Made by a program: the position numbers and the translations under genes. A stretch of DNA of 63,761 nt, counting the filler. It is 4 parts of 4 records of this genome, joined end to end, with 100 filler letters (N's around TTAATTAATTAA, not from the genome) between each part and the next. Parts side by side here need not be neighbours in the genome. Positions count along the whole stretch, not along the records: positions 16,922 to 28,845 come from SRR20825006_1726; 3 more parts are not named here. The stretch is one strand, 5' to 3'. Below, one piece after another: positions 5,066 to 61,322 of the stretch. The first letter of the stretch is position 1. Each line of letters begins with the position of its first letter. Under the pieces are notes generated by a model. The model was not told the origin of the DNA and did no database searches. It saw only the letters and a list, made by a program, of their open reading frames with translations.

Positions 5066-6337
5066 CTATCTGTTAATAGTTTGAGTTCTGTCTGGTCCAA
5101 CAGAAACTATTTTTATAGGAACATTTAATTCTTTTTCAAGGAAATCTATATAATCATTTAATTCCTTCGGAAATTCTTCTGTTGAGCTTAATTTAGTAAG
5201 GTCTTTATCCCATCCATTCATTTCAGTATAAATAGGAGTTACATTTTCAGCTTCAATATTATAAGGTAAATGCTCAATAGTTTCTCCTTTATATGAATAA
5301 GCGGTACAGACTTTTAATTTTTTAAATCCGCTTAAAACGTCAGCCTTCATCATCATTAATTGGGTTACTCCATTAACTTGTACAGCATATTTTAAAGCAA
5401 CTAAATCCAGCCATCCACATCTTCTAGGTCTCCCTGTTACAGCTCCAAATTCATTTCCAATTCTAGCCATGTTTTCTCCATCTTCGTCAAATAACTCTGT
5501 TGGGAAAGGGCCACTTCCTACACGAGTGGTGTAAGCCTTGAAAATTCCAAAAACTTCACCAATTCTGTTTGGAGCAACTCCTAAACCTGTACAAGCTCCA
5601 GCAGCAGTTGTGTTAGAAGAGGTTACAAATGGGTATGTTCCAAAGTCAATATCTAATAAAGATCCTTGAGCTCCTTCAGCTAGAATAGTTTTATTTTCTT
5701 TTAAAGATTGATTTAAAAACTCTTCACTATCTATGAATTTTAATTTTTTCAATTCGGTAATAGCTTCAAAGAATTCTCTTTCAAGTTCTGCTAAATCATA
5801 TTGAATATCTACATTATAAAAGCTAATCATAGCCTCATGTTTATCGGCTAAAGCTCTATATCTATCTTTAAAGTCGCTTAACTCAATATCTCCAACTCTT
5901 AGACCGTTTCTTCCAGTTTTGTCCATATAAGTTGGGCCAATACCTTTTAAAGTAGAACCTATTTTGGCTTTTCCTTTGGAAGCTTCAGAAGCGGCATCCA
6001 ATAATCTGTGTGTTGGAAGAATAAGATGCGCTTTTCTAGATAATATAAGTTTCTTAACGTAATCTATTTTAAATTGATCTAACCCTTCTAGTTCTTTAAC
6101 AAAAACTACAGGATCTATAACAACCCCATTTCCAATTACATTAATAGAGTTTTCATGAAAAATACCTGATGGAATTGTTCTTAAAACGTGTTTTATGCCA
6201 TCAAATTCTAAAGTGTGACCAGCATTTGGGCCTCCTTGGAAACGAGCAATGATATCATAATTTTTGGTGAGTACATCAACGATTTTACCTTTTCCTTCGT
6301 CTCCCCATTGTAATCCTAGTAGTAAGTCTACTGCCAT
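5066..6337 (-). CDS. purA: Adenylosuccinate synthetase
   Basis: QWGDEGKGK, GGPNAGHT, EGAQG, GAVTGRPRRCGWLD motifs. Confidence 0.98.
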   Translation of the reverse strand: MAVDLLLGLQWGDEGKGKIVDVLTKNYDIIARFQGGPNAGHTLEFDGIKHVLRTIPSGIFHENSINVIGNGVVIDPVVFVKELEGLDQFKIDYVKKLILSRKAHLILPTHRLLDAASEASKGKAKIGSTLKGIGPTYMDKTGRNGLRVGDIELSDFKDRYRALADKHEAMISFYNVDIQYDLAELEREFFEAITELKKLKFIDSEEFLNQSLKENKTILAEGAQGSLLDIDFGTYPFVTSSNTTAAGACTGLGVAPNRIGEVFGIFKAYTTRVGSGPFPTELFDEDGENMARIGNEFGAVTGRPRRCGWLDLVALKYAVQVNGVTQLMMMKADVLSGFKKLKVCTAYSYKGETIEHLPYNIEAENVTPIYTEMNGWDKDLTKLSSTEEFPKELNDYIDFLEKELNVPIKIVSVGPDRTQTINR

Positions 6338-16821: not shown

Positions 16822-16921
16822 NNNNNNNNNNNNNNNNNNNNNNNNNNNNNNNNNNNNNNNNNNNNTTAATTAATTAANNNNNNNNNNNNNNNNNNNNNNN
16901 NNNNNNNNNNNNNNNNNNNNN
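16822..16921. other. Artificial contig linker
   Basis: N44-TTAATTAATTAA-N44 (stops in all six frames); composition changes abruptly across it. Confidence 0.99.
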
Positions 16922-16922
16922 C

Positions 16923-17507
16923 GAAGTTCAGGGCGATGCCAACGATTATGTTGGTAAGGGTCTTTCGGGTGGGACGATTGTTCTGCGCCCGCGGCCTTCC
17001 AGCCCGCTTAAAACCAACGAAAACACCATCATCGGCAACACCATTCTGTATGGTGCGACCGCAGGTAAGCTGTTTGCGGCCGGTCAGGCTGGTGAACGCT
17101 TCTGTGTTCGTAACTCCGGTGCGATTGTTGTTGTTGAAGGCTGTGGTTCGAACGGTTGTGAATATATGACCGGCGGAACGGCCGTTATCCTTGGTGCGGT
17201 TGGTGAAAACTTTGGCGCAGGCATGACCGGCGGCATGGCGTTCATTTATGACGTCAACAATACCTTTGGCAATGTCGTCAATGACGGCTCCATCCTTTAC
17301 CAGCGCATTGAAACCCAGCATTGGGACGAACAGTGCCGTGCCCTTATCGAGGAGCATGTTGCCGAAACCGAAAGTGGTTTCGCACGGACCATCCTTGATA
17401 ACTGGGATCGCGAACGCGGCCACTTCTGGCAGATCGTGCCAAAAGAAATCGTCGACAAGCTGGAACACCCTATTCGCTCGATGAGCGAAGACCAGGCAAC
17501 TGCGTGA
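16923..17507 (+). CDS. gltB: Glutamate synthase large subunit, C-terminal GXGXG domain (5' truncated by contig edge)
   Basis: Frame from 16923 reads EVQGDANDYVGKGLSGG...GCEYMTGG...NFGAGMTGG. Confidence 0.95.
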   Translation, partial: EVQGDANDYVGKGLSGGTIVLRPRPSSPLKTNENTIIGNTILYGATAGKLFAAGQAGERFCVRNSGAIVVVEGCGSNGCEYMTGGTAVILGAVGENFGAGMTGGMAFIYDVNNTFGNVVNDGSILYQRIETQHWDEQCRALIEEHVAETESGFARTILDNWDRERGHFWQIVPKEIVDKLEHPIRSMSEDQATA

Positions 17508-17563
17508 TCTGATCACGCTTTTGCGCAAGCTCCCTTGTCCAACACACCTGGACAAATTAACTG

Positions 17564-17598
17564 GCCCCGTACTTCGGTACGGGGCACTTTGTCTTTGT
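17564..17598 (+). terminator. Intrinsic terminator after gltB
   Basis: GCCCCGTAC-TTCG-GTACGGGGC (UUCG tetraloop) followed by a T-rich tail. Confidence 0.7.
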
Positions 17599-17629
17599 AT
17601 CAGGTGCTTTGCGGAAAACGGGCGCTCAG

Positions 17630-17661
17630 AAGGCGGGTCCATTTGGCCCGCCTTTTTCTTT
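17630..17661 (+). terminator. Second terminator-like hairpin
   Basis: AAGGCGGG...CCCGCCTT followed by TTTCTTT. Confidence 0.6.
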
Positions 17662-17751
17662 GGAAATGGGCCCAGTTACAAAACACACTTGTCCGATCTG
17701 TTCACGCGGAGCAGATGTCAGACATATAGGCGTTGATGGCCGGGCTGATGC

Positions 17752-17976
17752 TTAGAGAAGAATGTTGAGATAGGTTCCGCGGCGCGCATTATGGTCGATC
17801 TGATCAGTCGCAATCAGATTGCGCAGGCGGGCAAGCTGGGCCGCAATGAAGCTTTCAGAAGATGGTAGTTCGATTACGGCCGCACCGCGCCCGCGCCCAA
17901 CAGGTATTTGTGGACGTGAACGTGCATCCTGAAGCCCGGTATGGGAGGAGCCTGTGCCAATTCTGTTGGTGGTCAT
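17752..17976 (-). CDS. Small hypothetical protein (74 aa) ending RRGTYLNILL
   Basis: ATG at 17976 preceded by GGATGG; C-terminal motif shared with the neighbouring ORF. Confidence 0.6.
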   Translation of the reverse strand: MTTNRIGTGSSHTGLQDARSRPQIPVGRGRGAAVIELPSSESFIAAQLARLRNLIATDQIDHNARRGTYLNILL

Positions 17977-18069
17977 TGTGCCATCCAAGTGTGAAACCGT
18001 TGGCAACCTTAGCACGCAATGGCGAACTTGTCATCGGGGGCGATTATGCCCGGCTTACAATCCAGACAG

Positions 18070-18097
18070 AAAAAAAAGGGTGGTCAATGACCACCCC
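18070..18097 (-). terminator. Terminator of the 18123-18347 ORF
   Basis: GGGTGGTCA-A-TGACCACCC hairpin with A8 on its left (U8 on the minus strand). Confidence 0.75.
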
Positions 18098-18122
18098 GGA
18101 GGAAGCTAACGAGAGGGAAAAA

Positions 18123-18347
18123 TCACGTTAGGATATTAACCTTGGTACCGCGCGAACCACTGGTTTCAAGCGGTTGATGTTCTGTAACGATTGAGCCGAT
18201 CACTTTTGCCAGACCCGTTGCTTTGTTGATCGCGCCTTCTGCGGCTGCGAATGGCAATGTCGGGCCCGCGCCACCATTGGGCGTGATTGCATCATTTACG
18301 GCCTGTGCCGCTGAACTAAGTCCTGAACCTTGAACTGAGCCGATCAT
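18123..18347 (-). CDS. Small hypothetical protein (74 aa) ending SRGTKVNILT
   Basis: ATG at 18347 preceded by a GAGG RBS; has its own terminator. Confidence 0.7.
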   Translation of the reverse strand: MIGSVQGSGLSSAAQAVNDAITPNGGAGPTLPFAAAEGAINKATGLAKVIGSIVTEHQPLETSGSRGTKVNILT

Positions 18348-18636
18348 CCTGACCTCGTAAACATATCGGGAGGGTTCGATACCCATCGCAGAGAACATCA
18401 AAAAATCTCTATGACGTCAGGGTATGGGGTAATTGTGCTGGAAAAAGTGATGGCTGTCACACCCGCCCATAGGGTGGGTTAACCAGGTCACCGTAACGGG
18501 TTGGTTCAGAAGCATTTAAAGCATAAGGAAAGGGTAATATTTTTTTAACCATTGCGCTACGACGCGCTCCATAACGGGTGGTTATGGTTGGGGACTCGGT
18601 GACACAGCGGGATGGGATCAGGTTTTGCGACAGGTA

Positions 18637-20994
18637 TCAGGAGCTTTGACGTTCCGCGCGCAAAGCAATGGCGTCGTGAATGGCTTTTTGCAGTTGGGCC
18701 GGGCGGAACGGCTTTTTGACAAACACGTAATTGCCCAGAAGCTTGTCGAGCTCTTTGCGCGACCTTGCGGGATAGCCCGACATGAAGACAACGCCGTATC
18801 GTTGGTTCTGGCGCAATGCTTCGATAATCAACTGCGGGCCACTGCGACCCGACATGACAACGTCGGTCAAGATCACATCAAATGGATCGTTGAGTTCTGT
18901 TTGTTTCAGAAGGTCCAAGGCTTCTTCGGTGCTTTTAGCGGTTTCAATTCTGAAACCGGCATCTTGCAGAATAATGCCGGCAGTGGTGCGGAGTGCCTGT
19001 TCATCATCGACAATCAGAATGCGTTCCCCATTGCCGGGGAGGTTATCAATCTTGTCGATATGGCGTGTTGTTTCGATCCCTGCTTCGGACCTTGGCAAAT
19101 AGACCGAGAAGGTAGTGCCTTCGCCCTCGATGCTTTCGACTTTAATAAAGCCGTGTGCTTCTTCGACCCAGCTGTGAACAATCGAAAGGCCAAGGCCTGT
19201 ACCTTTTCCCGGCTCCTTGGTCGAGAAGAAGGGTTCAAAGATGTTGTCGACAATGTCGTCAGGAATGCCGGTCCCCGTATCCTGAACCGTGATGACAACA
19301 AACTCGCCGGCAATGTTATCGGGAAATGTTTCATCGTCTTCATCGGGTACGCGCTGGGCGAGTGGGGGAATGTCGATGCTGCTACATGAAATCTGCAAGG
19401 TGCCGCCGTCGGGCATGGCATCACGTGCGTTGATCGCAAGATTAAGAATGCAGGCTGATAACTGGGTCGGATCAACACGGGTATAAAGTTCGGGCTCATT
19501 CGACCAGATTTGTAGCTCGATCCGGTGTTCAAGAAGGGTTAGCAGCAGTTTTTCCATTTCCGAGAAAATGCTTTGCACCCGAACATTGGTCGGCTGATCG
19601 ATCCTGCGCCGGGAAAACATCAAAAGCTGATCGGCAACACTGGTTGCACGTTCGCCAAGTGAAATCACATGATCAAGATATTCTTTGACCCGTTCCGGAT
19701 CATCGACTTTGGCGCGGGCAACTTCGGCAAAGCTCAGAATACCGGCAAGGCAGTTGTTGAATTCGTGCGCGACCCCACCGGCCATTTGGCCAACGGCCTC
19801 AAGCTTTTGCGATGTGGCAAGTTGACGTTGCAGGGCCTGTTGTTCTTCTGCTGCGCGGTGTTGTGCCGTAATGTTACTGCCGGTTCCGCGATAGCCATTA
19901 AAACGACCATCAAGGGTAAAGACCGGAACACCGTTGATCCGCCCGTAATGCTTTTCGCCCGTGCGTGATGTCCAGGAAAATTCAACGTTCTGGAATGCCA
20001 TATGGGCATCAAGACGGCGTTGCAGGTAATGCCAGCTTTCAGAATGTTCAGAATGAAGGCCCAGCTTGTCAAAGGATTGACCTTGCGGAGAGCCGTTAAT
20101 TTCTTCGATCAGCTGATAGAACTTATAGGACGCGAACGCGATTTTAAGGTCCGCCCCCATTTCCCAATACCAGTCGGCCGATGACAGGGTGAAGTCACGG
20201 AACCGTTCTTCGCTGTCGCGCAGGGCGTCTTGTGCAATCTGATGTTGCTGCGTTCTGCGTTCCAGACTTTCCGCCATGGCATTCAGGCCACGTTCCAGTG
20301 TGCCAATTTCATCGCGCCCCATTGGCGTCAGGCGAGAACCCAATTTACCAATCTGGATTTTATTGACGAACTGGGCGGCTGTAATCAGGCGTTTAAGGAC
20401 AGTGTGCTGGGTAAACAGGAAAATCAGCACCGACGTCAGCAAAATACACATCGCCGATCCGACCAACAGGACCGATTGCATTTCACGTTGGCTTTCTTCA
20501 AGGCCCTTGGTTGAGACCTTGAGATAGACATACATGAAAGGCTGGCTGGCATTCAGGCTGAAAAGCGGGGTGATGGAGACCATGCTTTGGCCGCCATTGT
20601 CATGGGTTGTGAACAGAACCTGATCTGTCAGATTCGAACGCAATTCGTCTTGGGGAAAGTCGGGCATGACATTGATTGAGCTTCCGACCAGAAGCGGATC
20701 AATCGCATGGTAAATCGTACCGTCAAAGCCGACAGCCATGGCTTGCTGTAAGTGTCTTCCCAGCAACCGCTCCATTTGTGCTGCATCACTCAGGATGGAG
20801 ACTTTAAGCTGTTCGTCCTGAATGAGACGTCCGGGGGCACTGATTTGTTCCGCGATACGGCGGTCAATCTCTGCTCCAAAATACTGCACGTAATAGCCGC
20901 CAAACAGGCCAAGCAGGATGGTTTCCACGATCACAATCGCCAACGCGATCTTGAAAACCAGACTGCCAATCATCCGGTCTAACAGCTTCTTCAC
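18637..20994 (-). CDS. Membrane hybrid sensor histidine kinase (periplasmic domain-HAMP-PAS-HisKA-HATPase-REC)
   Basis: Two TMs, HAMP (GRDEIGTL), PAS (DWYWE), H-box [28 protein letters not shown] (LIVDDE, TDVVM). Confidence 0.93.
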
Positions 20995-21037
20995 GCGTAT
21001 CTGTCTCCCCTGACAGGACCTTATTCAGTGCACCGGG

Positions 21038-22942
21038 TTACTTTTGCTCAATATAATATTGGCTCGGGTTTGTCGGTGCCGGTGTCGCATAACTCCATGC
21101 TGCCGGGATAACTTTGGGAACGTTGTGGAAGTCTTTGGCGACCACGCCTTTCCTGTTTGGCGGCAAAGCAATTCCCATAACGTAGAACTGATCTGCACTG
21201 ATGTCGAGAATATCGCGCATCAGTTGAGTTTGTTTTTCAGCATTCGCTGTTTCTTTAAGGCTGTTATAAAGCGAAAGCTGCTTTTGAACGGCCGCCGGGG
21301 GGGTAATTGCATCGGGACTATCAGGGTTGACGTACCAGTTGGCCCATCCGGTTGCGAACCAGGACGAATCAGCTGACATTGGCAAATAGTTGATTGGGAT
21401 CACCATTGCGTCCAATCCACCATCGCCGCCCCACGCACTGGCATGGTGATTATTGTTATCGCGCAGGGAAACAAATTCGTCACGTGGCAGGTTGCGGGCC
21501 GTCACATCAATGCCAAGGTCGCGCCAATATGCGATCACGGCATCAAGGATCGCGAACCTGTCGGCACCTTCGGTGTCAATTATAAAGGACAGGCGTTTTC
21601 CATCCGGACGCAGCAGGAAACCTTCGTCGTCTTTTTTGTTCAGACCGGCCTTGGACAAATAATCTGACGCCAATTCCGGATCGAAATGAATGAACTGGCG
21701 GGCAAGAACCGTGTGATAAAGCGGGCTTTCCGGCCTTGGTGCGGCTTGATTTGGCAAGGCGCCGGGGATAAAGCGCGCAATAATCATGTCGCGATCGATG
21801 GCATGCGAAAGTGCGATACGGAAATTCTTGTTCTGGAAAATATCGCGCAGCACCAAGTCCTTGTCATTAAGGTTCAGGGACAAGGTCAGTGTGTTCATGT
21901 CGCTTTCGACCAGCGTAAAGGGCTGCAGGTTATCATTGGCCGCAAGGACCTCATCTGCACGTGTACTGACATGGCGTTCCTGCATATTGACCATACCGGC
22001 AATGGCCGCATCCCCGGCGGCACTTCGTGACGGGACAAGGGCAAAGGATACCTCGTCAATATAAGGAAGCTGGCGCCCGGTTGGGTCAATTTTCCAATAA
22101 TACGGATTGCGCTTGGCAATCAGTGGATCATCTTCGCCGTAGGTTCCTGTCAGAATCCATGCATTAAGTGTCGGAACGTCCGGATTGTGCCAACGCGAAG
22201 GATCGTCAATCGTGCCCGGATTGCCAAACACCTCGACAAAGCGTTCTTTCCACCCGGCAAAGCCAAGTTCGCGGGCTTCTTTGTCGGCGTTTGGATTAAA
22301 CTTTGGTAAAAGGGGCTTAAGGAAGTGTGCCGGGTAGCTCACCGGCTCCACACCTTCGGGACGTGCCAAGGCGGTCGGGAACAGCCCATAAGGTGTGCTG
22401 AAACGAAAGGCGACAGTGGTTGCGTCAACCTGATCAATCTGTACGGCATTGCCCCCCGCCGTTAGCCATTCGGGCACAGCATCGGCGAATGCAGGATTGC
22501 TCAGGATGTTTTCATACCAGAAGACAATGTCATCCACACTGAATGGCGCACCATCAGACCACCGCATGCCCGGTCGCAGGCGGAAGAAAAATTCCGTCGC
22601 ATCGCTGCTTGGTTGAAAGGACAGCGCGACATTGGGAATTGTGGACGTCCATTGTGGTGTCCAGCGCAGCAGCGGTTCGTAGCCAATGTTACGGATCAGC
22701 AATGCATGGTCGCGTTGGTTGCGCTGGGCCATTTTCCATGTGCCCCCATAAACGCCGATTTTATCATTGGGGGTAACGATCATTGGCGTGGTTGGCAGGC
22801 GGTCTTTGACGGGCGGTAAAGTGCCAGCGGCAACTTCTTTGGCAAGAATAGGGGCTTCGCCAAATTCAACAGCATGCAGTTTTGGGCTGTTCACCAGCAT
22901 GGTGCCCATTACGGCAATCAATATGTATTTAAACTGTTTCAA
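21038..22942 (-). CDS. ABC transporter substrate-binding protein, family 5 (OppA/DppA-like)
   Basis: Signal peptide, LPPVKDRLP, LRPGMRWSDGAPF, RNPYYWK, FRIALSHAIDR. Confidence 0.9.
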   Translation of the reverse strand: MKQFKYILIAVMGTMLVNSPKLHAVEFGEAPILAKEVAAGTLPPVKDRLPTTPMIVTPNDKIGVYGGTWKMAQRNQRDHALLIRNIGYEPLLRWTPQWTSTIPNVALSFQPSSDATEFFFRLRPGMRWSDGAPFSVDDIVFWYENILSNPAFADAVPEWLTAGGNAVQIDQVDATTVAFRFSTPYGLFPTALARPEGVEPVSYPAHFLKPLLPKFNPNADKEARELGFAGWKERFVEVFGNPGTIDDPSRWHNPDVPTLNAWILTGTYGEDDPLIAKRNPYYWKIDPTGRQLPYIDEVSFALVPSRSAAGDAAIAGMVNMQERHVSTRADEVLAANDNLQPFTLVESDMNTLTLSLNLNDKDLVLRDIFQNKNFRIALSHAIDRDMIIARFIPGALPNQAAPRPESPLYHTVLARQFIHFDPELASDYLSKAGLNKKDDEGFLLRPDGKRLSFIIDTEGADRFAILDAVIAYWRDLGIDVTARNLPRDEFVSLRDNNNHHASAWGGDGGLDAMVIPINYLPMSADSSWFATGWANWYVNPDSPDAITPPAAVQKQLSLYNSLKETANAEKQTQLMRDILDISADQFYVMGIALPPNRKGVVAKDFHNVPKVIPAAWSYATPAPTNPSQYYIEQK

Positions 22943-23304
22943 AGATTCCTGTGCCCCTGTCGCGGTAGTCGCCTCTGACCTAAGGTATCGGTGAAGCTAT
23001 TCAAAGGTGGTGAATACCTTGAGTGACTATGAAGGTAAATAGACCAGTGCCCATGATAAACCCCAAAATGTGTTGCTGTGGCGTCTGGGCTTTCAATTTA
23101 TATACATAAATTGAGTGTTCTATATGTATTTTCACAAGAACATGAGCAGGAAGTTTCGCCGTAAAATGGGCTCTGATACCGCAGAATTGAAAGGTTTTTG
23201 TGCGAATCCGAAAGCATTTTTGATCTGTCTCATAAACGATATATCGGTCTGCGGTAGTCGTTGTTCAATGCCTTTCGAATACGAGCATGATACTAAAGTT
23301 TAAT

Positions 23305-23325
23305 ACTGTCTAATATATAGACAGT
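23305..23325. promoter_or_regulatory. Inverted repeat, candidate operator
   Basis: ACTGTCTA-ATATA-TAGACAGT in an AT-rich divergent intergenic region. Confidence 0.4.
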
Positions 23326-23409
23326 GACGCGAAAATGCAGAATTTTGGGCGCAACAGCGTTAATTTTCTGACGAGTCGTCCTATATGATAGGTACGACAT
23401 TCAAGCTTA

Positions 23410-23724
23410 ATGAAAGACGGACGTGTGGCGCAATCTGATGATGACACAAAGCGAGCTTTGGAAGCGTCTTTCATGGACGGCCCGAAGCCAACTGCACCGA
23501 TCCCACGATATGAATCGGGATCGGATGCGGGGTTGCGTGATCGTTTGCGCGGATCTTCGTCTGCAACATCGATGATTCCTCTCAAAGATGACCCAGACGG
23601 GTTTAGTGTTGCGGGGATCGAAGGGATGATTGATCGCAGGAAGGCAAATGTTGCTGCCAAGGTGGTCGAAACGGATCCCGATCAGGCGTTGCGCGTCATC
23701 CGTAATTGGTTGCTGCAAGACTGA
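23410..23724 (+). CDS. Small protein with a FliF C-terminal (FliG-binding)-like tail
   Basis: C-terminus IEGMIDRRKANVAAKVVETDPDQALRVIRNWLLQD resembles the end of alphaproteobacterial FliF; no TM or ring domains. Confidence 0.65.
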   Translation: MKDGRVAQSDDDTKRALEASFMDGPKPTAPIPRYESGSDAGLRDRLRGSSSATSMIPLKDDPDGFSVAGIEGMIDRRKANVAAKVVETDPDQALRVIRNWLLQD

Positions 23725-23882
23725 TCCGTCGAACCTGTGGAACAGCTTATTCTTGCGTATCGATCAATCTCATTATTTCACTGCAAAGCATCCAATACAC
23801 ATTTTGGGATAATTCCTTGGCATTACGAGATTTTTTGTCATGCTGATCGCTTGATGAGGTATTTGGGAAGGCTTATGCGGTT

Positions 23883-25097
23883 ATGATTGATTTTACCAAG
23901 CTGATTGCAGACCAGTTCTGCGTGTTTGATCCTGATTATGTTGCGCAACAAGAAGCCTTCGCCAACAAACTTGCCCCCCTTCAGGAAAAGCTGATTGAGG
24001 CCCAAAAAACCGGGAACAGCATGGCGGCATCCGATCAGCAAATGATCGAATGCAAATGGCTTTTGCTTTACACGGCTGACTGGAAAACGCTGACTGCGAA
24101 ACTTGATGCGTTTGCCAAGTCGCTGGAAAATACCGATCAGGACTGGGCCGAAAAACAGGTGCCAAGCGATGGGTCATGGGGGCCTTGTTATGATCAATGG
24201 TTCCTGAAAGTCGATGCCATGATTGATGCGGTCAATACCTTGGCCGATGCAGGGCAGGCGCCTGAGTATCCATTCTTGTTCATGGCGCCGATCGCAACGC
24301 CTGAAAAAATGATTGCCTGGTTGGAAAGTCAGAAAACGTCTTCGATCTTTACCGATGGTCTGGATCGCCGTGATGCCTTGGGTGCGGTGACAGCAACGCT
24401 TTCGCAGATGTGCTTTAAAAGCGAAATTCGCGATTATTTTCAAAGCCATGTACAGGGTTTTGACCTGACCGAAGACTATATCAACGCCTATAAGAAGTGG
24501 CTTGATGATTGGCAGGATCCGCAAAGCGGGTATTGGGGCGGATGGTTTAATACGCAAGACCAGGGTGTTTTAAAAAGCAGTGATCTTAGCCTGACCTTCC
24601 ACAATATTTCCTATCAGCATGGCAAGGTTGATTTGTGGACGGCGATCTTTGACACCACGCTTGCCATTCGTGACGAGGCCTACCCGTTTGGCTGGAAACA
24701 CAATGACGATTTCAACAATCACAACAATTATGATGTGACCAAGATTTTCGATCTTGGTTGGTCAAGTGTCGATACGGATACGCAAAACGAAGCTGCATCA
24801 GATATCGGGTTGGTTTTGAACTGGTGTCTAACCAAATCAATGACGCCAGATGGCGGGTTTATCGATGACCCGACATTCTATAACTCGGTTGGTGCAGCCT
24901 ATTATTACGGGGTCTCGTTCCTTGATCAGGCCGGGTATTTCGGAACCGACGTGCCGTTCTGGACCGACAAGCCGTTTGCCGATGGTCCGGCTCTTTGCTG
25001 TAAAATCCAGAAAAACATCAAATCCGAAGGCCTTGATGACGACGAAGCCAAGGCTGCGCTTGAAAAACTTGTCGATGCCTGTGGAAATTGTGCGTGA
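23883..25097 (+). CDS. Hypothetical protein, possible (alpha/alpha)-barrel with QW/prenyltransferase-like repeats
   Basis: 404-aa ORF; repeated QVPSDGSWG, WQDPQSGYWG and MTPDGGF motifs. Confidence 0.7.
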   Translation: MIDFTKLIADQFCVFDPDYVAQQEAFANKLAPLQEKLIEAQKTGNSMAASDQQMIECKWLLLYTADWKTLTAKLDAFAKSLENTDQDWAEKQVPSDGSWGPCYDQWFLKVDAMIDAVNTLADAGQAPEYPFLFMAPIATPEKMIAWLESQKTSSIFTDGLDRRDALGAVTATLSQMCFKSEIRDYFQSHVQGFDLTEDYINAYKKWLDDWQDPQSGYWGGWFNTQDQGVLKSSDLSLTFHNISYQHGKVDLWTAIFDTTLAIRDEAYPFGWKHNDDFNNHNNYDVTKIFDLGWSSVDTDTQNEAASDIGLVLNWCLTKSMTPDGGFIDDPTFYNSVGAAYYYGVSFLDQAGYFGTDVPFWTDKPFADGPALCCKIQKNIKSEGLDDDEAKAALEKLVDACGNCA

Positions 25098-25200
25098 AAA
25101 CGCAATTTAGGGAACTGAATTAGCTTTGGGGGTTGGCGAAATACCCCCGGCACTCCCCATATGAAGGAAAGAAGAATAAAAACAGGTCATGAGGGTCCAG

Positions 25201-25560
25201 ATGACAGATCGAAAAGATATTGATCTTGCTGGTTTGCGGGTGCGTCTTGAAGAACGACGTGCCGATATTTTGGCGCATTCAGAACATTCCGAAAATCACC
25301 GAAAGCCGGTTGAACTAGATCAACAGGCGGTCGGGCGGTTATCGCGCATGGATGCGCTTCAGAATCAGCAGATGCATCTGGAACAGGAACGCCGTCGGGC
25401 CGCCGAACTTTCCCGTATTGAGAAGACGCTTGCGCGTATGGAAAATGATGCATACGGGCATTGTCATAATTGCGGTGACCCCATTGAAACGAAACGGTTG
25501 GAATTTGATCCGACAACACCGCTTTGTGTCGAATGTGCCAATCATGTAAGCCACGGCTGA
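25201..25560 (+). CDS. TraR/DksA family C4 zinc-finger protein
   Basis: ELDQQAVGRLSRMDA coiled-coil tip; CHNC...CVEC zinc finger; GAGG RBS before ATG 25201. Confidence 0.9.
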   Translation: MTDRKDIDLAGLRVRLEERRADILAHSEHSENHRKPVELDQQAVGRLSRMDALQNQQMHLEQERRRAAELSRIEKTLARMENDAYGHCHNCGDPIETKRLEFDPTTPLCVECANHVSHG

Positions 25561-25616
25561 TATCTTTGCGTAGAATGAAAAACACGCAGTGCCAACGATG
25601 GCCTGATGGATAAGCT

Positions 25617-26372
25617 TTGGACAAAGTCGGGAGAGACCGTTTGCCGGTTTATAGGCAATATGATCGGATCAGTTTAAGTGGCCTTGCCATCAGTCTGCTT
25701 TTGATCTGTGCAGCCGTTCTGTTTTCCGGCCCGGCGAGCGCGCAAGGATCTTGTGGACCGATATCGGCACCGCAAGCGATTTTGGAATTTAATCACAAAG
25801 ACCCGCAGTTGGACCGGCACCGGTCTGTTCGGTGGCTGAATGCCCGGGCGGGCGGTAGTCCGAGTTATCTTGTTGCAGGCCTGACCGAATATGAAATGCG
25901 GGCATCGTTTGATATGCGGTTTGAACCACGGCAAGTCGGGTTTGGTCGTTATTGTCTCGACCCGGTTCGGGTCAATCCAAAGGTCGATGTGGTCAAGCAT
26001 CTGGTCTATATCGCATCGGAGCTTAACCGTGGGTCATGCGAATATAACGTGGTCTATGCCCACGAAGGCGAACACGTGAAAATCAATCAGGGGATGGAGG
26101 CCGATATTAGGGTTGCTCTTGATGATTTGATCGCCGATGTTGTGCGCAAGGTCGATGCCATGTTTCCGCTTGCGGCGGATAATGTACCCGGCGCAATGAA
26201 AAGACTTCTCTCAGAATATGGCCGGGATTTTAAACGACGCATACGCGATATTGATCGCAATCGGCGTGAACAACACAGACAGATCGATACGCCAGCAGAA
26301 TATGAAAAGCTGTCATTGGCTTGTGGTCCGAACTCAGCGTTTCAGACAGTTTTACAAGCCGCCGCGCGTTAG
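25617..26372 (+). CDS. Exported hypothetical protein with an HExxH motif (DUF922-like predicted Zn protease)
   Basis: Signal-peptide-like segment ending ASA-QG; VYAHEGEHV; start uncertain. Confidence 0.6.
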   Translation: MDKVGRDRLPVYRQYDRISLSGLAISLLLICAAVLFSGPASAQGSCGPISAPQAILEFNHKDPQLDRHRSVRWLNARAGGSPSYLVAGLTEYEMRASFDMRFEPRQVGFGRYCLDPVRVNPKVDVVKHLVYIASELNRGSCEYNVVYAHEGEHVKINQGMEADIRVALDDLIADVVRKVDAMFPLAADNVPGAMKRLLSEYGRDFKRRIRDIDRNRREQHRQIDTPAEYEKLSLACGPNSAFQTVLQAAAR

Positions 26373-26388
26373 GTCCTGACCTGACCCC

Positions 26389-27060
26389 CTAGGCGGTTGA
26401 ATCAAGGGTAACCAAACCCTTTTCAATCGCATAACGGACAAGCCCGGCCGAACTATCAATATCAAGTTTGCGTTTGATGTTGCGGCGGTGTGTTTCAACC
26501 GTACGGACACTAATATCAAGTTCACGGGCAACATGCTTGTTGCTGGCACCTTTGGCCAGAAGGCGCAAGACGGTGCGTTCGCGTGTGGTCAAGGGGACGC
26601 CATCACTGTTGCTGCCGGCACCCGCACTGATGCGATCAAAGGTGGAGCTATAGGCTTCACCGCCATTGGCGATGGTTTCAATTGCCCGGACCATGTCGTT
26701 TGATGACACGTCTTTCAGGATAAAGCCCTTTGCCCCGGCCTGCTGTGCAGTGCGCAGATATTCCGGGTTTTCATGCATTGAAAGAATGACGACCTTGGTA
26801 CCCGGAAGGGTTTCACGGAACTTTTCGGCTGCTTCCAACCCGTTCATGACAGGCATGGAGATATCCATCAGAACGATATCAGGGTGCAACTCCCCGGCAA
26901 GAGACAGGGCTTCGACGCCATTGCTGGCTTCGCCAATGATGTTGATATGATCAAAGCATTCCAGTCGCGAACGGATGCCATCCATCACAAGGGCATGGTC
27001 ATCACACAGCAAAATGCGCAAAGGACGGTCGGTGGAATAGATTTGATTGGCACTGTTCAT
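26389..27060 (-). CDS. NarL/LuxR family response regulator
   Basis: REC (LCDDH, MDISMP) and LuxR HTH (LTTRE..., ISVRTVETHR). Confidence 0.95.
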   Translation of the reverse strand: MNSANQIYSTDRPLRILLCDDHALVMDGIRSRLECFDHINIIGEASNGVEALSLAGELHPDIVLMDISMPVMNGLEAAEKFRETLPGTKVVILSMHENPEYLRTAQQAGAKGFILKDVSSNDMVRAIETIANGGEAYSSTFDRISAGAGSNSDGVPLTTRERTVLRLLAKGASNKHVARELDISVRTVETHRRNIKRKLDIDSSAGLVRYAIEKGLVTLDSTA

Positions 27061-27106
27061 TGGCTGAAACTTGTTCCTGTCGCGTGATTATGGATGCAAG
27101 GCCAGA

Positions 27107-28510
27107 TTAACCGCTGATTGTCCGGCCGGGTAGCGCATTCTGGTTGGTTGCGGGAATAAATGCAGTGATTTTGGTGCCGTCATCGGGCTCTGAGCGCACG
27201 GCAAGCCCCCCGCCATGGAATTCCATACGTTCGCGCATGTTGCGCAAACCGATGCCCGCACGGGGATCGCGGTTTCGGATATAGCGGTTTGTCTCGAACC
27301 CGACCCCGTTATCGGTGATGCGCATCACAACACTTTGGCCTTCGCGTTTGATGCTGATTTTGATCACGGTCGCATCGGCGTGGCGTTCAATATTGGTAAG
27401 CGTCTCCTGCAAGACACGGTAAAGCGTGGTTTTTTTGGCGATATCAAGCTGGTTGTCGATCGCATCGCATTTGACGTCGATCCGGATGCTTGAACGGTCT
27501 TGCAGTTCGGCACACATGCTTTCAATCGCGGGTTTCAGGCCAAGGTCATCAAGGACCGCCGGGCGCAGGTCACGCGAAATACGTCGGACTTCATGAATGG
27601 CGTCCTGTAACCGTTTGGCGGCCTTTTCCATCGGTTCAATTGCGTTTTCGCGTTTTTGCCCAATCCGCGCGATGGCTGTTTCAACCGAATATTTGACCGA
27701 CACCAATATTTGGCTGATGCCATCATGCAATTCCCGTGAGACCCGCAAACGTTCCTGTTCCTGCACATCGACCACGCGGTGGGTCAGTTCTTTTAGCTTG
27801 GAATCGGCAAGTTTACGTTCAGACAGGGTAACGACCGTGCCCGATATGCCGACCAGCAGCACGGCAAGGATGGTGACTCCGATGATCGAAATCGTTGTTT
27901 CGCGGATATGAGTGGAAACCTCGGCCTCGATTTCTGCGACCTGTTCGGAAATATCGTCGATATAAATCCCGGTGCCGATCATCCAACCCCATTTATCAAG
28001 CATCAGGGAATAAGTGATCTTTTCCGTGGGTTCGCCTGTGGATGGTTTTTCCCAGACATGGCGCATGAAGTCGCCGCCCTTTTCGGCGTTAAAGATCAGT
28101 CCCTGAATGACCGTGTTGCCATTAAGGTCGCGCAAATTCCAATAGGTGCGGCCCAAACGCCATGGTTGGGGCGGATCAACAAGGGCGGTGCCATCACGGT
28201 CATAAATGAAGAAATACCCATCTTCACCATAAGACAGGTCTTCGATGATGGATTTGACCCGTTCCTTGGAAACCGCATCAAGCGGGCTTGCGACCGAATA
28301 GATGTGATCAATCGATGCCATCGCCAGTTCGAGATAGCTTTTGAGCTCTTCTTTCCGCGCTTCAAGGATATTGCGCTCGAACGTTCTGATCTCGGCCTCG
28401 GCCAATCGTTCTGCCTGCGCAAAGACCAGCCAGGAGATCGCTGAGGCAGCAAGAACCAGCGGCAGGATGGAAAGCAGTAGGAACTTTAGTCGAAGATTAA
28501 GCTGCGGCAT
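27107..28510 (-). CDS. Cache-domain sensor histidine kinase (HisKA_3 type)
   Basis: Two TMs flanking a single Cache domain (YGEDGYFFIYD, GWMIGTGIYID); ERLRVSRELHDGISQ; GIGL; likely start MPQLN at 28510. Confidence 0.92.
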   Translation of the reverse strand: MPQLNLRLKFLLLSILPLVLAASAISWLVFAQAERLAEAEIRTFERNILEARKEELKSYLELAMASIDHIYSVASPLDAVSKERVKSIIEDLSYGEDGYFFIYDRDGTALVDPPQPWRLGRTYWNLRDLNGNTVIQGLIFNAEKGGDFMRHVWEKPSTGEPTEKITYSLMLDKWGWMIGTGIYIDDISEQVAEIEAEVSTHIRETTISIIGVTILAVLLVGISGTVVTLSERKLADSKLKELTHRVVDVQEQERLRVSRELHDGISQILVSVKYSVETAIARIGQKRENAIEPMEKAAKRLQDAIHEVRRISRDLRPAVLDDLGLKPAIESMCAELQDRSSIRIDVKCDAIDNQLDIAKKTTLYRVLQETLTNIERHADATVIKISIKREGQSVVMRITDNGVGFETNRYIRNRDPRAGIGLRNMRERMEFHGGGLAVRSEPDDGTKITAFIPATNQNALPGRTISG

Positions 28511-28845
28511 GGGCGTGACCGTTTTGGATTTGGGGGTTTCCTTGGGCGGACAATAGCATGTCTGTCGTAAAAGTCCCCGAAAGAACGCGGATGTGCCAGT
28601 ACACGGATCGATCATTTATCTGGTCGATTTTCCGCATGGTGAAAAGCAACTGGTCCTGTATTTTTTAAATTGGTATTACCAATTAACGAGATCATGCTTT
28701 GACAGGGAGAGGGCAATGCGCATATACCAGAACCGACGCCTGCCCACCGGGCGCCAAAAGCTCTGGATGCATTGCACAAGATCTCAACGTGCAGGCATCC
28801 TGTTCCGCCACACAAGGTATGGCGTTGCAGGCATCCCGCACCGCA

Positions 28846-28945
28846 NNNNNNNNNNNNNNNNNNNNNNNNNNNNNNNNNNNNNNNNNNNNTTAATTAATTA
28901 ANNNNNNNNNNNNNNNNNNNNNNNNNNNNNNNNNNNNNNNNNNNN
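28846..28945. other. Artificial contig linker
   Basis: N44-TTAATTAATTAA-N44. Confidence 0.99.
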
Positions 28946-29092: not shown

Positions 29093-30059
29093 AAGTTGGA
29101 CACTAACAACACCAATCTTTAATACTAACGGAACGGTTGTAGTGAATGGCACGGCAGGTTCTGGAGGTCCAGTTACTTCTACAACAGGAGCTTGGTTAAC
29201 TACTGGAAATACAGCGTTAGCTGCAAATTACATAGGAACAAACAACGCAATCGACTTTAGAATGTATTCAAATGGTTTAGAGCGTATGACAATCGAATCG
29301 AATGGATTTATTGGAATTCGTACAGCAGCTCCAACGCATCTTCTTCACATGATTAATCCAGTAGCTGTAGGAGCGAACTCAATGGCGGCTTTTGAAAATA
29401 CAGGTGCCGATGGTGTTCCAATTTCAGCAAGAAATATGGGGGCTACCAACGGATATAATGCTATTGAAGGAATCACGGATTACGCTGGAACAGGATTTAT
29501 TCCTGCTGGAGTTTTCGGTTTAGCAATATATCAAGGTGCAGTATTAGCACCAACAATCGGTGTTCGAGGTCATTCAAATGAGTGGCAAGGAACTGGAATT
29601 TACGGAAGTAGATTTAACAGTGGCGGAGCTAACTCTGGTTGGGGAGGTCAAATCTATGACGATCTTGGGTATACTGGTTTTTTTGGTGCGATTTCAGATA
29701 GTCGCTTAAAGAAGAATGTTCAGGAAATTGATGGAGCATTGGGAATTATCGCTCGATTGAATCCTGTTACTTACAATTTTGATTTGGAAAAGTATCCGAA
29801 TATGGGACTGAACCAAGAAATGGAATATGGATTCATAGCTCAAGAAGTGCGTGAGGTTTTACCTGAAATTACACGTGAAAAAACATTTCAAACGAATGCT
29901 TGCACGGAGTTAGGAGCGAATGGACAAACACCGAATAATTCGGAACTGTTTATTGCAATGGATTACACACGAATTATTCCAATTCTTACAAAAGCGATCC
30001 AAGAACAACAATTGCTTATTGAATCACTAGAACAAAGAATCAGTGAATTAGAAAAATAA
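28947..30059 (+). CDS. Collagen-like fibre protein with a C-terminal Peptidase_S74 intramolecular chaperone (5' truncated)
   Basis: Open frame from 28947 with Gly-X-Y repeats ([15 protein letters not shown]...), then [16 protein letters not shown] and [15 protein letters not shown] coiled coil. Confidence 0.9.
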
Positions 30060-50671: not shown

Positions 50672-50771
50672 NNNNNNNNNNNNNNNNNNNNNNNNNNNNN
50701 NNNNNNNNNNNNNNNTTAATTAATTAANNNNNNNNNNNNNNNNNNNNNNNNNNNNNNNNNNNNNNNNNNNN
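50672..50771. other. Artificial contig linker
   Basis: N44-TTAATTAATTAA-N44. Confidence 0.99.
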
Positions 50772-57719: not shown

Positions 57720-60700
57720 TTAAGCCTTAAGCTTAAAATGGAAAGTACTTCCTATGCCAGGTTGAGAATCTACCCAAATTTTACCATCGTGCAGTTTTAC
57801 AATCTTGTCACAATGGGCTAAGCCTATTCCTGTACCTTCAATATTATCGTTTCTATGTATTTTATTGAAAATTTTAAATATGTTTTCTAGATCTATTTCT
57901 TCAATACCAATACCATTATCATTCACAGAAAAGATATAATGATCATTATCTTTAAAATATGATATTCTAATATCTGGAGTAACACCTTTTTTGCAATACT
58001 TTAAAGCATTAGAAAGCAAGTTTTGGAATAGTAACCTCAACTCTACCTCATACCCTTTAATAATTGGCAGTTTACCGATAGAAATTTTTGCTTTACAGTC
58101 ACTTATACTTTTAGCAAGATCCATAACAACAGTATCTAACACTTGTTTTAAATCTACATCTTGCTTTTCACTGTTTTGCCCTATTCTACTATGCTCAAGT
58201 AGGGCATTTATTTGATTTGCCAAACGTCCGGCAGCTTCATGAATATACCTGATGTATTCTTTACCTTTTGATTCGAGTTGGTGGCTAAAGTTTTTGTCCA
58301 GCATTTCACTTCCAAATCGAATAGTTGCTAGTGGTTCTTTTAAATCGTGTGAACAAATAGACACAAATTGCTCCAACTCATTGTTAGCCATCTCTAAATC
58401 TAATTGTCTCTTGGCTAACTTATCTGCTGTTTCTTTAAGAGCTGTAATATCTAAGAGTGTTCCCATAGTTATTGTTTCTCCGTGAATATTTTTTGTAAGC
58501 TTGGAGTTTAGTAACACGTGTATTTCTCTGCCATCCATAGAAACCAAGGTCATGTCTTCATTTTGAACCTCACCTGTGTTTTTTATTTCAGTAATTAAAT
58601 CGCTTGCCTTTATTTTAGATTGATCATTATAAAATTGAAAGATAGATTTGTTTAAAATCTCTTTTTTGTTTTTAAACCCTAAAGTTTTATAAAATATTTT
58701 ATTGCAATCCACAATGTTTCCGCTATCTGGACTTATGCTAGCATGCATTACAGGGTCATTTTCATAGAAATCTTTAAACTTAGATTGACTTCTTCTTAGT
58801 TCTTCTTGAGATTTATGAATACTCTCTATATCTATAAATGTGATTACTGCACCATTAGCTTCTCCAGCGGTTGTAATAAATGGAGATATGCGTTGTAAAA
58901 AGTGACGTTTGCCTTTGCTTATTATTTTCTTTTCAAATACTTTTCCTGTATTAATAACACGTTCTGCATTAGTTACAATATTGTTTGTGTTGTTCTCTCC
59001 AAAACTAACAACAAAATTATCTATATGCCTTCCTACATCTGCTTGGTATAAATCAAAATGTTCTTTAATAGCTGGCGTAAATTTTCGTATTCTTAACTTA
59101 GAGTCTAAGAAAATCACGCCTAAATTGGTACTTGTTAGTAAGTTATTAATATCCTCGTTTAGAGCACCTAATTCGTCAAGTTTTTGAATATGCTCTGCAT
59201 TTACGGTATGCAATTCTTCATTTACACTTTGTAGCTCTTCATTTGTACTTTGCAACTCTTCATTACTAGCCAATAACTCTTCATTAGTAGCTTGTAACTC
59301 CTCGTTACTCGTCTCTGTTTCCTCTATAGCTTTATTTAATTCATCTTGAACATGATCTATTTCTTCCTCGAGATCTTTTATTCGTAATGAGGCACTTTCA
59401 CTAATACTTGTGCGCTCAATAACAGTTTCATTAACACTCTCAATGTTTTGATCCATTAGTGATACCACAAACTCTGTTACTCTATTTGAGTTATCATCTG
59501 ATATTGGAAGTACTCTTAGATCTACAGCTGTTTGACCATCATCATTTACAAAAATGATTCGCTCTGAAATGACATGCTTATCCTTAAGGCGTTTAGATCG
59601 TTTTACACTAGTTGTTAGTGGTATTTTAAATTCTTCAGGAAGCATTTTAAGCAGGTTAGTTGTAAAACCTGAGTTAGGTAGATTTGCAAATTTCCTAAAG
59701 TTACCACGTGCTTCTAAGATGTTATAATCTTCATCTATATAAATACTCGTAGCATTAAACTGTTCTAAAATAGATGAGCTTAATAGTTCTTCTATTTTTC
59801 GTTGCTTCATATTAGAATTAGCAACGATATCTGGGTTTGTTCTTCTTTTGTTTCTAAACTTTCTGTCACTCGAAGAATGTAAAGTTTCTGTTCTTAAGCC
59901 TCTGGAAACTTTTAGGTTTTTGAAAATTTTCCACTTTCTACTAATAGTGTCAAAGTTATCGCCTTCATTACCTAAACTTTCGCTAGATCCTAAAACTAAA
60001 TAACCTTCTAGTTTTAAGCTAAAGTGCAATACTTTAAATACTTTTTGCTGTACATCATTCTGAAAATAAATTAATAGGTTTCTGCACATTACCATATCTA
60101 CCTTATTAAAAGGTGGATCTTTTAGAATGTTATGATTTGAAAATATTGCGGTGCGTCTTACAGATTCTGCTATTTTAAAGGTATCATCATCCTTTTTAAA
60201 ATATCTGGCTAGATATTCTGGATCTACATCTACCAAAGTGCTTTTGCTATATTCGCCTTTACTGGCAATATCTAAATGAAATTGAGAAATATCTGTTGCA
60301 AATATTTTAAGCTCTATGCGTTTTTTCTGTTTAGCAATTTCTTCTAAGAACAAAATTGCCAAAGAATAAGTTTCTTCTCCAGTACTACATGCTACATCCC
60401 AAATTTTGAGAATATCATTATCTTGTTTATCTGCTACTAATTTAGGTATCACATTATTTTCAAGAAGACGCCACATTTCTTCATCTCTGAAAAACTTTGT
60501 AACTCCAATTAAAAATTCTTTATAAATAATATCTACCTCATCTTTACTGTCCTTTAAATACTTGTAGTAATCTCTTAATGATCCTATTTGTAGCATTCTC
60601 ATTCGCCTAATAATACGGCGTAATAATGTTGGTCTTTTGTAAAGATTGAAGTCTAGCTCTGTCTTGCTTTTAAGTAAGTTTAATATATCTCTTAGTGCAG

Positions 60701-61322
60701 AGTCATCTATATTAGTGAAATCTTGTGTGATGCTTAAGATGTTACTACTGTCAAAATAGCTTATAATTTCATTACTCATATCCTCCACAGGCACTACAAA
60801 GTCTGGAAATCCAGTATTTATAGCACTTTGAGGCATACCATCAAATTTTGCTTGTTCTGGCTGTTGTACCAAGACTAAGCCACCTTCTTCTTTTATATAA
60901 CGAATTCCTCGAGAGCCATCACTTCCAGTACCACTTAATATTACACCTACAGCATTTTGCCTGTATTCTTTAGCTAAAGATTCAAAAAGTATATCAATAG
61001 GTAAGTTAAGCTGTTGCCCTTTTGGTTTGTCTAATAATTTAAGGTGTTTATTTTCAATTACAAGATTCTTAGATGGCGGAATTACATAAATATGATTTCG
61101 CTCTATCTCTGCATCATGCTTTATTTCTGTAATTGGTATTTTAGTCTTTTTAGCTAATAACTCTGCCATAAGACTTTTATGGTCGGGAGACAAATGTTGC
61201 ACTATTAAGTACGTATAGTCACTATCTTCTGGGACATTATAAAAAAAGCTGTTTAAAGCTTCTAAGCCACCTGCACTTGCACCTACAGCAACAAGTATAT
61301 GATTATCTGGAATATTATTCAA
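57720..61322 (-). CDS. CheB-CheR-PAS-histidine kinase fusion protein
   Basis: CheB (GASAGG, VQH, SGTGSDG), CheR ([23 protein letters not shown]), coiled coil, PAS domains, [15 protein letters not shown]. Confidence 0.93.

Follow-up and report, generated by a model that had tools for sequence, protein, structure and literature searches.

A small gene on a contig derived from the marine genus Thalassospira encodes a predicted soluble protein of about 99 amino acids, the last 39 residues of which are, by sequence and profile comparison, a paralogue of the extreme C-terminus of FliF. The simplest reading of a FliF-tail peptide placed on a soluble protein, where the cell has a single fliF and a single fliG, is that of a second ligand for the N-terminal domain of FliG (FliG-N), and we put at about even odds (probability roughly 0.5) that the small protein acts on FliG-N in trans, as a holder or as a competitor in C-ring assembly. 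The window, that is, the whole stretch of DNA analysed (63,761 nucleotides, filler included), is a composite of four contigs; the features discussed are collected in Table 1.

Table 1 Positions of the small gene, its modules, and surrounding features in the window. Residues are in ORF numbering.
Feature	Position	Strand	Details
Thalassospira-derived contig carrying the ORF	16922..28845	.	GC 0.52; bounded by N spacers
Spacers N44-TTAATTAATTAA-N44 joining the four contigs	16822-16921, 28846-28945, 50672-50771		
Conserved upstream motif CTAAAGTTT-N8-CTAAT	23293..23314	+	core invariant in 12 aligned upstream regions
Second conserved upstream block GACGAGTCGyC..TATAT	23370..23389	+	at least 70% conserved in part of the alignment
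Stand-alone FliF-tail paralogue ORF	23410..23724	+	104 aa, stop codon included in coordinates; 36 homologues; 26 syntenic loci
GTG, most likely start (99-aa product)	23425..23427	+	inferred; aligned with ATG/GTG start of most orthologues
N module, residues 24-39, proline-rich GPKPxAPIPRYEPGSD	23479..23526	+	alignment of 33 sequences; dN/dS 0.089
Variable Ser/Thr/Asp-rich linker, residues 40-65	23527..23604	+	orthologues differ in length and sequence
C module, residues 66-104, paralogue of the last 39 FliF residues	23605..23721	+	hhalign, BLASTP, profiles, AF2, dN/dS 0.085

The small gene and its surroundings

The open reading frame (ORF) lies exactly where the original prediction had placed it, on the plus strand and with the C-terminus quoted there. 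The length of 104 aa given for it stood in part: a frame of 104 aa is present, the start is uncertain, and 99 aa is likelier. Three starts are available, ATG 23410 (104 aa), GTG 23425 (99 aa), and ATG 23473 (83 aa), the last being the annotated start in several database entries; GTG 23425 is probably the true start because it coincides with an ATG or GTG start in most orthologues. The prediction of a soluble protein was likewise borne out, as the 104-aa product (pI 5.1) reaches a maximal Kyte-Doolittle mean of 0.26 in a 19-residue window and has no hydrophobic segment. The two transmembrane helices present in FliF are absent from the small protein, both by hydropathy and in an AF2 model without a long hydrophobic helix.

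Homologues of 80-115 aa (36 in a word-indexed search) all come from Thalassospira where their source names bear an organism; one database source names its homologue 'M-ring protein FliF/YscJ'. A scan of species-representative genomes gave 26 loci, 25 titled Thalassospira and one a metagenome-assembled genome (MAG) titled 'Rhodospirillales bacterium'. The neighbourhood consists of genes for a hybrid histidine kinase and a family-5 solute-binding protein (SBP5), the small ORF, a 404-aa ORF, genes for a DksA/TraR-type zinc-finger protein, a 251-aa ORF, and a LuxR-type response regulator with a kinase; it is kept in full at 25 of the 26 loci, the remaining one (L021) being a 2.1-kb contig with the three central genes only. 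At 26/26 loci the small ORF is found between the SBP5 gene and the 404-aa ORF, at L026 just after the 404-aa ORF, the order of these two ORFs being exchanged there. Two paralogues in T. australica were considered and rejected, the two proteins belonging to two assemblies with identical synteny.

Identity among orthologues ranges from 47 to 96%, below that of the adjacent genes. Nei-Gojobori estimates of dN/dS are 0.085 for the C module (35 C-terminal codons, 262 pairs) and 0.089 for the N module (16 codons, 202 pairs), with a dS of about 1.2-1.3 in both comparisons. The antisense frame, open in the window, is interrupted by stops in 17 of 27 sequences, and the sense frame is intact in all 27. 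Because of the conserved synteny, these dN/dS values, and the antisense stops in relatives, the small ORF is, as judged from the comparison of sequences, a real gene under strong purifying selection (dN/dS about 0.09). An unconserved, decayed fliF remnant, named in the original prediction as the finding that would overturn it, is ruled out by synteny and dN/dS.

In an alignment of 33 sequences two nearly invariant modules (residues 24-39 and 66-104) flank the variable linker. Within the N module G24, Y34, and G37 are invariant and P25-P32 nearly so, and a motif resembling it is also seen in more distant small proteins; it has no significant counterpart in FliF. By eye only, a GP..P.P stretch in the FliF linker resembles the N module. 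The linker has pLDDT values mostly below 60 and a weak helix at residues 40-48 in the AF2 model. The separate conservation of the proline-rich N module suggests a second contact of the putative FliG ligand.

Upstream, the motif at 23293..23314, which contains small palindromes, may be a regulator site, and the block at 23370..23389 is a possible promoter element. In two Thalassospira genomes the only match to CTAAAGTTT-N8-CTAAT was at the locus itself in T. lucentensis Mv1 (G032), against 2 to 8 matches per strand for control motifs; the motif as the mark of a regulon was rejected for the same reason, the locus being its only match. As there is no flagellar neighbour and the motif occurs at the locus only in the two genomes, there is no sign of a tie between expression of the gene and the flagellar regulon. 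By eye, the motif looks like neither a sigma-54 nor a good sigma-28 promoter. Rfam models gave nothing near threshold on 22900-23950, and a promoter and terminator scan returned sites no more numerous than in shuffled sequences.

A weak hint of transcription comes from a metatranscriptome contig spanning 23411-23717 at about 98% identity, and from contigs of three more runs of one study (taken to be RNA by guess only) that cover the ORF in part and the next two genes in separate pieces; all these matches are assembled contigs from which no depth, strand, or ends can be read, and their uncovered parts carry no meaning. The 404-aa ORF (23883-25097, plus strand) always adjoins the small gene and has no Pfam match; a protein-atlas lead describes it as prenyltransferase-like (13% of one cluster, score 0.91). 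In the RNA libraries the contigs over it are distinct from those over the small ORF.

Similarity to the FliF tail and its occurrence in relatives

The C-terminus of the small protein had been said to resemble that of FliF, and three lines of comparison agree with this. Residues 55-104 of the ORF align to residues 498-548 of Thalassospira FliF with 33% identity (BLASTP, E 5e-8). The small-protein family aligned to FliF tails over the last 39 residues with a probability of 96.5% and an E-value of 9.8e-10 (hhalign; the FliF-tail alignment consisted of 19 tails from loci adjoining fliG and the Thalassospira tail). In each of three Thalassospira genomes (G032, G033, and G034) the family profile found the orthologue first and then only the extreme C-terminus of FliF (profile positions 54-99, 25.3-25.5 bits, E about 4e-5; next match E 0.57 or worse). 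The last 39 residues are thus, at the level of sequence, a paralogue of the extreme C-terminus of FliF.

Wider samples gave the same picture. Over 151 genomes of the order, the family profile had matches in 116; 112 of the 135 matches listed were in frames of at least 450 aa, at about profile positions 50-99. Of the 122 genomes of this sample having a FliG_N match, 92 had such a FliF-type match no more than 1 kb from fliG, which fits the 3' end of fliF, sited there in the order. A profile made from 24 small proteins only (A5) matched in 175 of 301 alphaproteobacterial genomes, a tally that takes in one unpublished genome (G421), with E-values down to 1e-15; most of the matches listed lie in frames of about 540-660 aa, mostly of FliF size.

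Other searches were negative within their scope. An hmmsearch of the family profile against 1.84 billion representatives gave 11 matches at E 0.001 or better, FliF not among them: nine were short proteins (38-121 aa) and two were long ones matched in the linker/N part. A word-based search for longer homologous proteins found none. Queried with the single protein, Pfam and NCBIfam returned nothing at E 10 or better, and the PDB sequences nothing relevant; a PDB profile search with the family retrieved no solved FliF peptide at E 10 or better, nor did the true FliF tails of the order, so that this miss carries no weight. Foldseek with the AF2 model of the small protein gave no match in the PDB at E 0.001 or better; its top row was a Salmonella C-ring chain (E 2.2, not significant).

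In the AF2 model of the small protein most of residues 1-65 are placed with low confidence, and two helices, at 76-88 and 90-102, with high confidence. The model of the FliF tail has helices at 57-78 and 80-93 (67-88 and 90-103 in ORF numbering), and the helix break is equivalent in both, at D89-P90 in the ORF and H79-P80 in the FliF tail. The two are alike in the alignment of the last 39 residues to an extreme C-terminus of the same genus and order, in the predicted helix-break-helix, and in the shared signature E-G, P, A-L, (V/I)-I-R, W; an extreme C-terminal helix pair with the FliG-binding signature is, by sequence, present in the small protein. Of 16 positions invariant in FliF tails, the small family keeps G, P, A, R, W, and nearly always E; three more show a conservative I/V exchange, and four are replaced (A by R76, S by K78, K by V/I81, and H by D89). 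R76, K78, and D89 are invariant in the small family; with residues of its own at FliF-invariant positions its surface is not identical to that of FliF, and partner or affinity may differ.

Unlike FliF, the small protein lacks transmembrane helices as well as ring-building domains, and its locus is far from fliF; unlike the FliF tail, it has its own invariant R76, K78, N80, and D89 and the additional proline-rich N module, and its binding to FliG is a prediction. The ring-building domains YscJ_FliF (PF01514) and YscJ_FliF_C (PF08345) are absent from the small protein, while Thalassospira FliF matches both. It falls outside the FliF family as ring domains and membrane helices define it, the paralogy being confined to the C-terminal peptide.

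An intact fliF elsewhere in the genome, which the original prediction had called for, is present: G032, G033, and G034 each have one fliF and one fliG. FliF of G033 has 549 aa, both ring-building Pfam domains, and an ordinary intact tail. The location outside any flagellar cluster was also confirmed, the 11.9-kb contig being without a flagellar gene; the complete chromosome of G032 carries the orthologue at 4.335 Mb, with fliF at 2.725 Mb and fliG at 1.737 Mb. The usual arrangement in the order has fliG immediately after fliF. In the order sample the full-length small ORF occurs in ten genomes, each of which has a FliF-type match and a FliG match as well, and in none of them is fliG within 1 kb of fliF. 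In G033 fliG (L081, G033:C1:934500-945500; 5243-6262, plus strand) stands alone between nuoA-E and lon, and the fliF operon (L080, G033:C10:160500-168262) comprises the end of flgE, fliF, a 504-aa FliH-like gene, fliN, motA, and a sigma-54 activator gene. Only the first 240 or so residues of the 504-aa product are FliH-like, below family cut-offs. In G032, whose small ORF is intact, fliG (L032, 1471-2490) is split into frames of 111 and 222 aa by either a frameshift or a misassembly.

Other stand-alone FliF-tail-like ORFs (63-115 aa) occur in G043, G066, G072, G128, and G177 of the order sample and in G442 of the class sample, and those whose surroundings were inspected lie among non-flagellar genes. 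G043 and G066 each have an extra fliG distant from fliF; fliG is unlinked from fliF in G072 and linked to it in G128. The ORF of G177 (G177:C7, L046, 4398-4646, plus strand) has 82 aa and a proline-rich N motif and begins 9 bases past a gene for a hybrid kinase (PAS-HisKA-HATPase, two receiver domains), which could be a link to signalling in another genus; at E 1e-8 G177 gave no FliG_N match. Among genomes with a FliG match, fliG lay apart from the FliF-type match in 15 of 16 with a small frame versus 31 of 106 without one, ten of the 15 being from one lineage and two (G083 and G099) having fragments and not stand-alone genes, and fourteen of the 31 being unclassifiable for want of any FliF-type match. 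An extra fliG without any small ORF is also seen in many genomes. The association of the small ORF with an unlinked fliG is a lead, not a result.

Small frames in G083, G373, G241, G286, G359, and G099 were rejected as stand-alone genes, these being pieces of a broken or split fliF or of one at a contig end. Three of them (L049, 3728-4093, in G083; L086, 3815-4126, in G373; L090, 3921-4271, in G241) have the FliF tail, with or without the last transmembrane helix, in a frame of its own, lie just after or apart from a truncated fliF, and could pass for mimics.

Proposed action on FliG and alternative readings

The FliF tail/FliG joint is treated as a fixed structural link. As described in PMC8956890, PMC10941966, and PMC7693769, the C-terminus of FliF binds FliG-N with co-folding, each partner needing the other for assembly, and its deletion abolishes flagellation; structures of the co-folded split domain are PDB 5TDY and 5WUJ (listed in PMC7693769). 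The ~99-aa soluble protein is a paralogue of the cytoplasmic FliF tail freed of membrane and ring-building parts, and in its C-terminal helix-break-helix (66-104) the signature of that tail, hydrophobic positions and P..AL.(V/I)IR.W, is kept. As this signature is kept, the helix pair most likely inserts into FliG-N, co-folding as the FliF tail does, in trans and off the MS ring. With fliG outside the fliF operon, alone between nuo and lon in Thalassospira, the small protein may hold FliG-N of free FliG and so determine how much FliG can join the MS ring through its 1:1 FliF tails. The net effect could be protective, FliG being held before it is handed over to FliF, or inhibitory, through competition at the joint between MS ring and C ring.

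If true, some bacteria would address this joint in trans by a separately encoded soluble copy of the peptide, with possible uses in chaperoning a FliG uncoupled from fliF, limiting motor assembly, or detaching the switch ring, and the small protein would be a natural tool to probe FliF-FliG exchange. A bolder version, which we hold to be distinctly unlikely, makes it a dedicated uncoupler of the MS-ring/C-ring joint, with a pre-folded off-motor pool of FliG and a whole switch ring stripped or exchanged on a signal received via the N module. Such an uncoupler would constitute a new level of flagellar control, the attachment of rotor to base, distinct from brakes and clutches at the stator face, and the look-alikes in G043, G066, G072, G128, G177, and G442 would then represent a recurrent invention in alphaproteobacteria.

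The EpsE clutch acts on FliG to control motility. The proposed ligand is like YcgR and EpsE in having FliG as its target and in controlling motility as a soluble factor, after or at the level of assembly; unlike them, it would act on FliG-N at the joint with the MS ring and not at the stator-facing part of the rotor. Pfam found no PilZ/YcgR or glycosyltransferase domain in the small protein, and no nucleotide-binding module is evident. In logic, the closest precedent is FlhX, which stands alone as a paralogue of the C-terminal cytoplasmic domain of FlhB and has a poorly understood role (bioRxiv 10.1101/2021.08.29.457346). FlhX too, in that account, reproduces in soluble form the cytoplasmic portion of a flagellar membrane protein and is sometimes encoded off-cluster, and a soluble paralogue of one cytoplasmic segment beside an intact parent gene is what is found in G032, G033, and G034. 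The parent of FlhX, however, is the export gate protein FlhB and not a part of the rotor joint, and there is no sequence relation; FlhX can replace FlhB in part, whereas a free FliF tail cannot replace a membrane anchor and would rather compete. FlgM, which sequesters FliA (same preprint), offers a further analogy in its similar size, largely disordered N part, helical C part, and the sequestration of a flagellar partner as proposed here; unlike in FlgM, the presumed target is a different one and export of the small protein through the flagellum would be pure speculation. The small protein had no match to the FlgM family model in Pfam or NCBIfam.

In Caulobacter the C-terminus of FliF serves as a signal for turnover by ClpAP. 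This is one of the points in favour of a mimic of the FliF tail directed at a partner other than FliG, such as a protease or adaptor recognising the FliF C-terminus, or of helices serving as a fold only with the N module as the functional part; the four FliF-invariant positions with family-specific residues, an N module as constrained as the C module (dN/dS 0.089), and a gene in no flagellar context point the same way. We nevertheless consider it unlikely, since the positions retained are the hydrophobic ones and the P/A-L/I-R/W signature common to FliF tails across the class, and since FliG-N is the only established partner of this peptide in the accessible portions of PMC8956890, PMC7693769, and PMC10941966. 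That FliG-N requires a FliF-type peptide to fold (PMC8956890) also lends itself to a stoichiometric motor part, with free tails completing FliG-N of those FliG subunits that lack a FliF tail of their own, for example where the C ring has more FliG than the MS ring has FliF; a gene syntenic and conserved at every Thalassospira locus found and a fliG uncoupled from fliF in the genus would suit it. The chance is slim, as FliF and FliG numbers are matched in the organisms studied (PMC8956890 and PMC7693769) and the gene is absent from most flagellated relatives.

Close to negligible is the chance of a dead leftover of a partial fliF duplication, or of no gene at all. The ORF is short, no protein family model matched it, and its orthologues are less alike (47-96%) than the neighbouring genes; against this stand a dN/dS of about 0.09 at a dS near 1.3, a frame intact in 27/27 sequences with the antisense open in just 10/27, two modules nearly invariant across the genus, and an RNA-library contig over the ORF. 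The reading preferred here remains that of a trans-acting FliG-N ligand. The original prediction knew of no described regulator of this kind, and none was found in the literature on mimics, decoys, or paralogs of FliF/FliG; in a full-text search on FliF/FliG, where the sources were represented mostly by their abstracts, no stand-alone FliF-tail protein is described. The original prediction as a whole held in its similarity to FliF-C; its functional half is a proposal based on the established co-folding of the FliF C-terminus with FliG-N.

Composition of the window

The contig carrying the small gene matches a locus of a Thalassospira MAG (L001) at 97.3% identity over 11.9 kb. The other three contigs (GC 0.30-0.40) carry genes for SusC/SusD, GldL (GldL_N), and proteins with a T9SS sorting domain; by these genes they are Bacteroidota-like, and the source assembly is a mixed bin, in which Thalassospira DNA was mixed into a Bacteroidota-like bin. 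Searches for FliF, FliG, and FlhA in G001, listed as the 'nearest' genome, and 30 of its relatives found none of the three. A non-flagellate host for the small gene was rejected, since G001 is kin to the low-GC contigs and the window is composite. Two genes outside the Thalassospira contig may be mentioned. At 57720-61322 (minus strand) a low-GC contig encodes a 1200-aa fusion of a CheB methylesterase, a CheR methyltransferase, PAS domains, and a histidine kinase. The third contig starts with a 305-aa ORF (29142-30059, plus strand) with a Peptidase_S74 (endosialidase chaperone) domain, which is typical of phage tail fibres.
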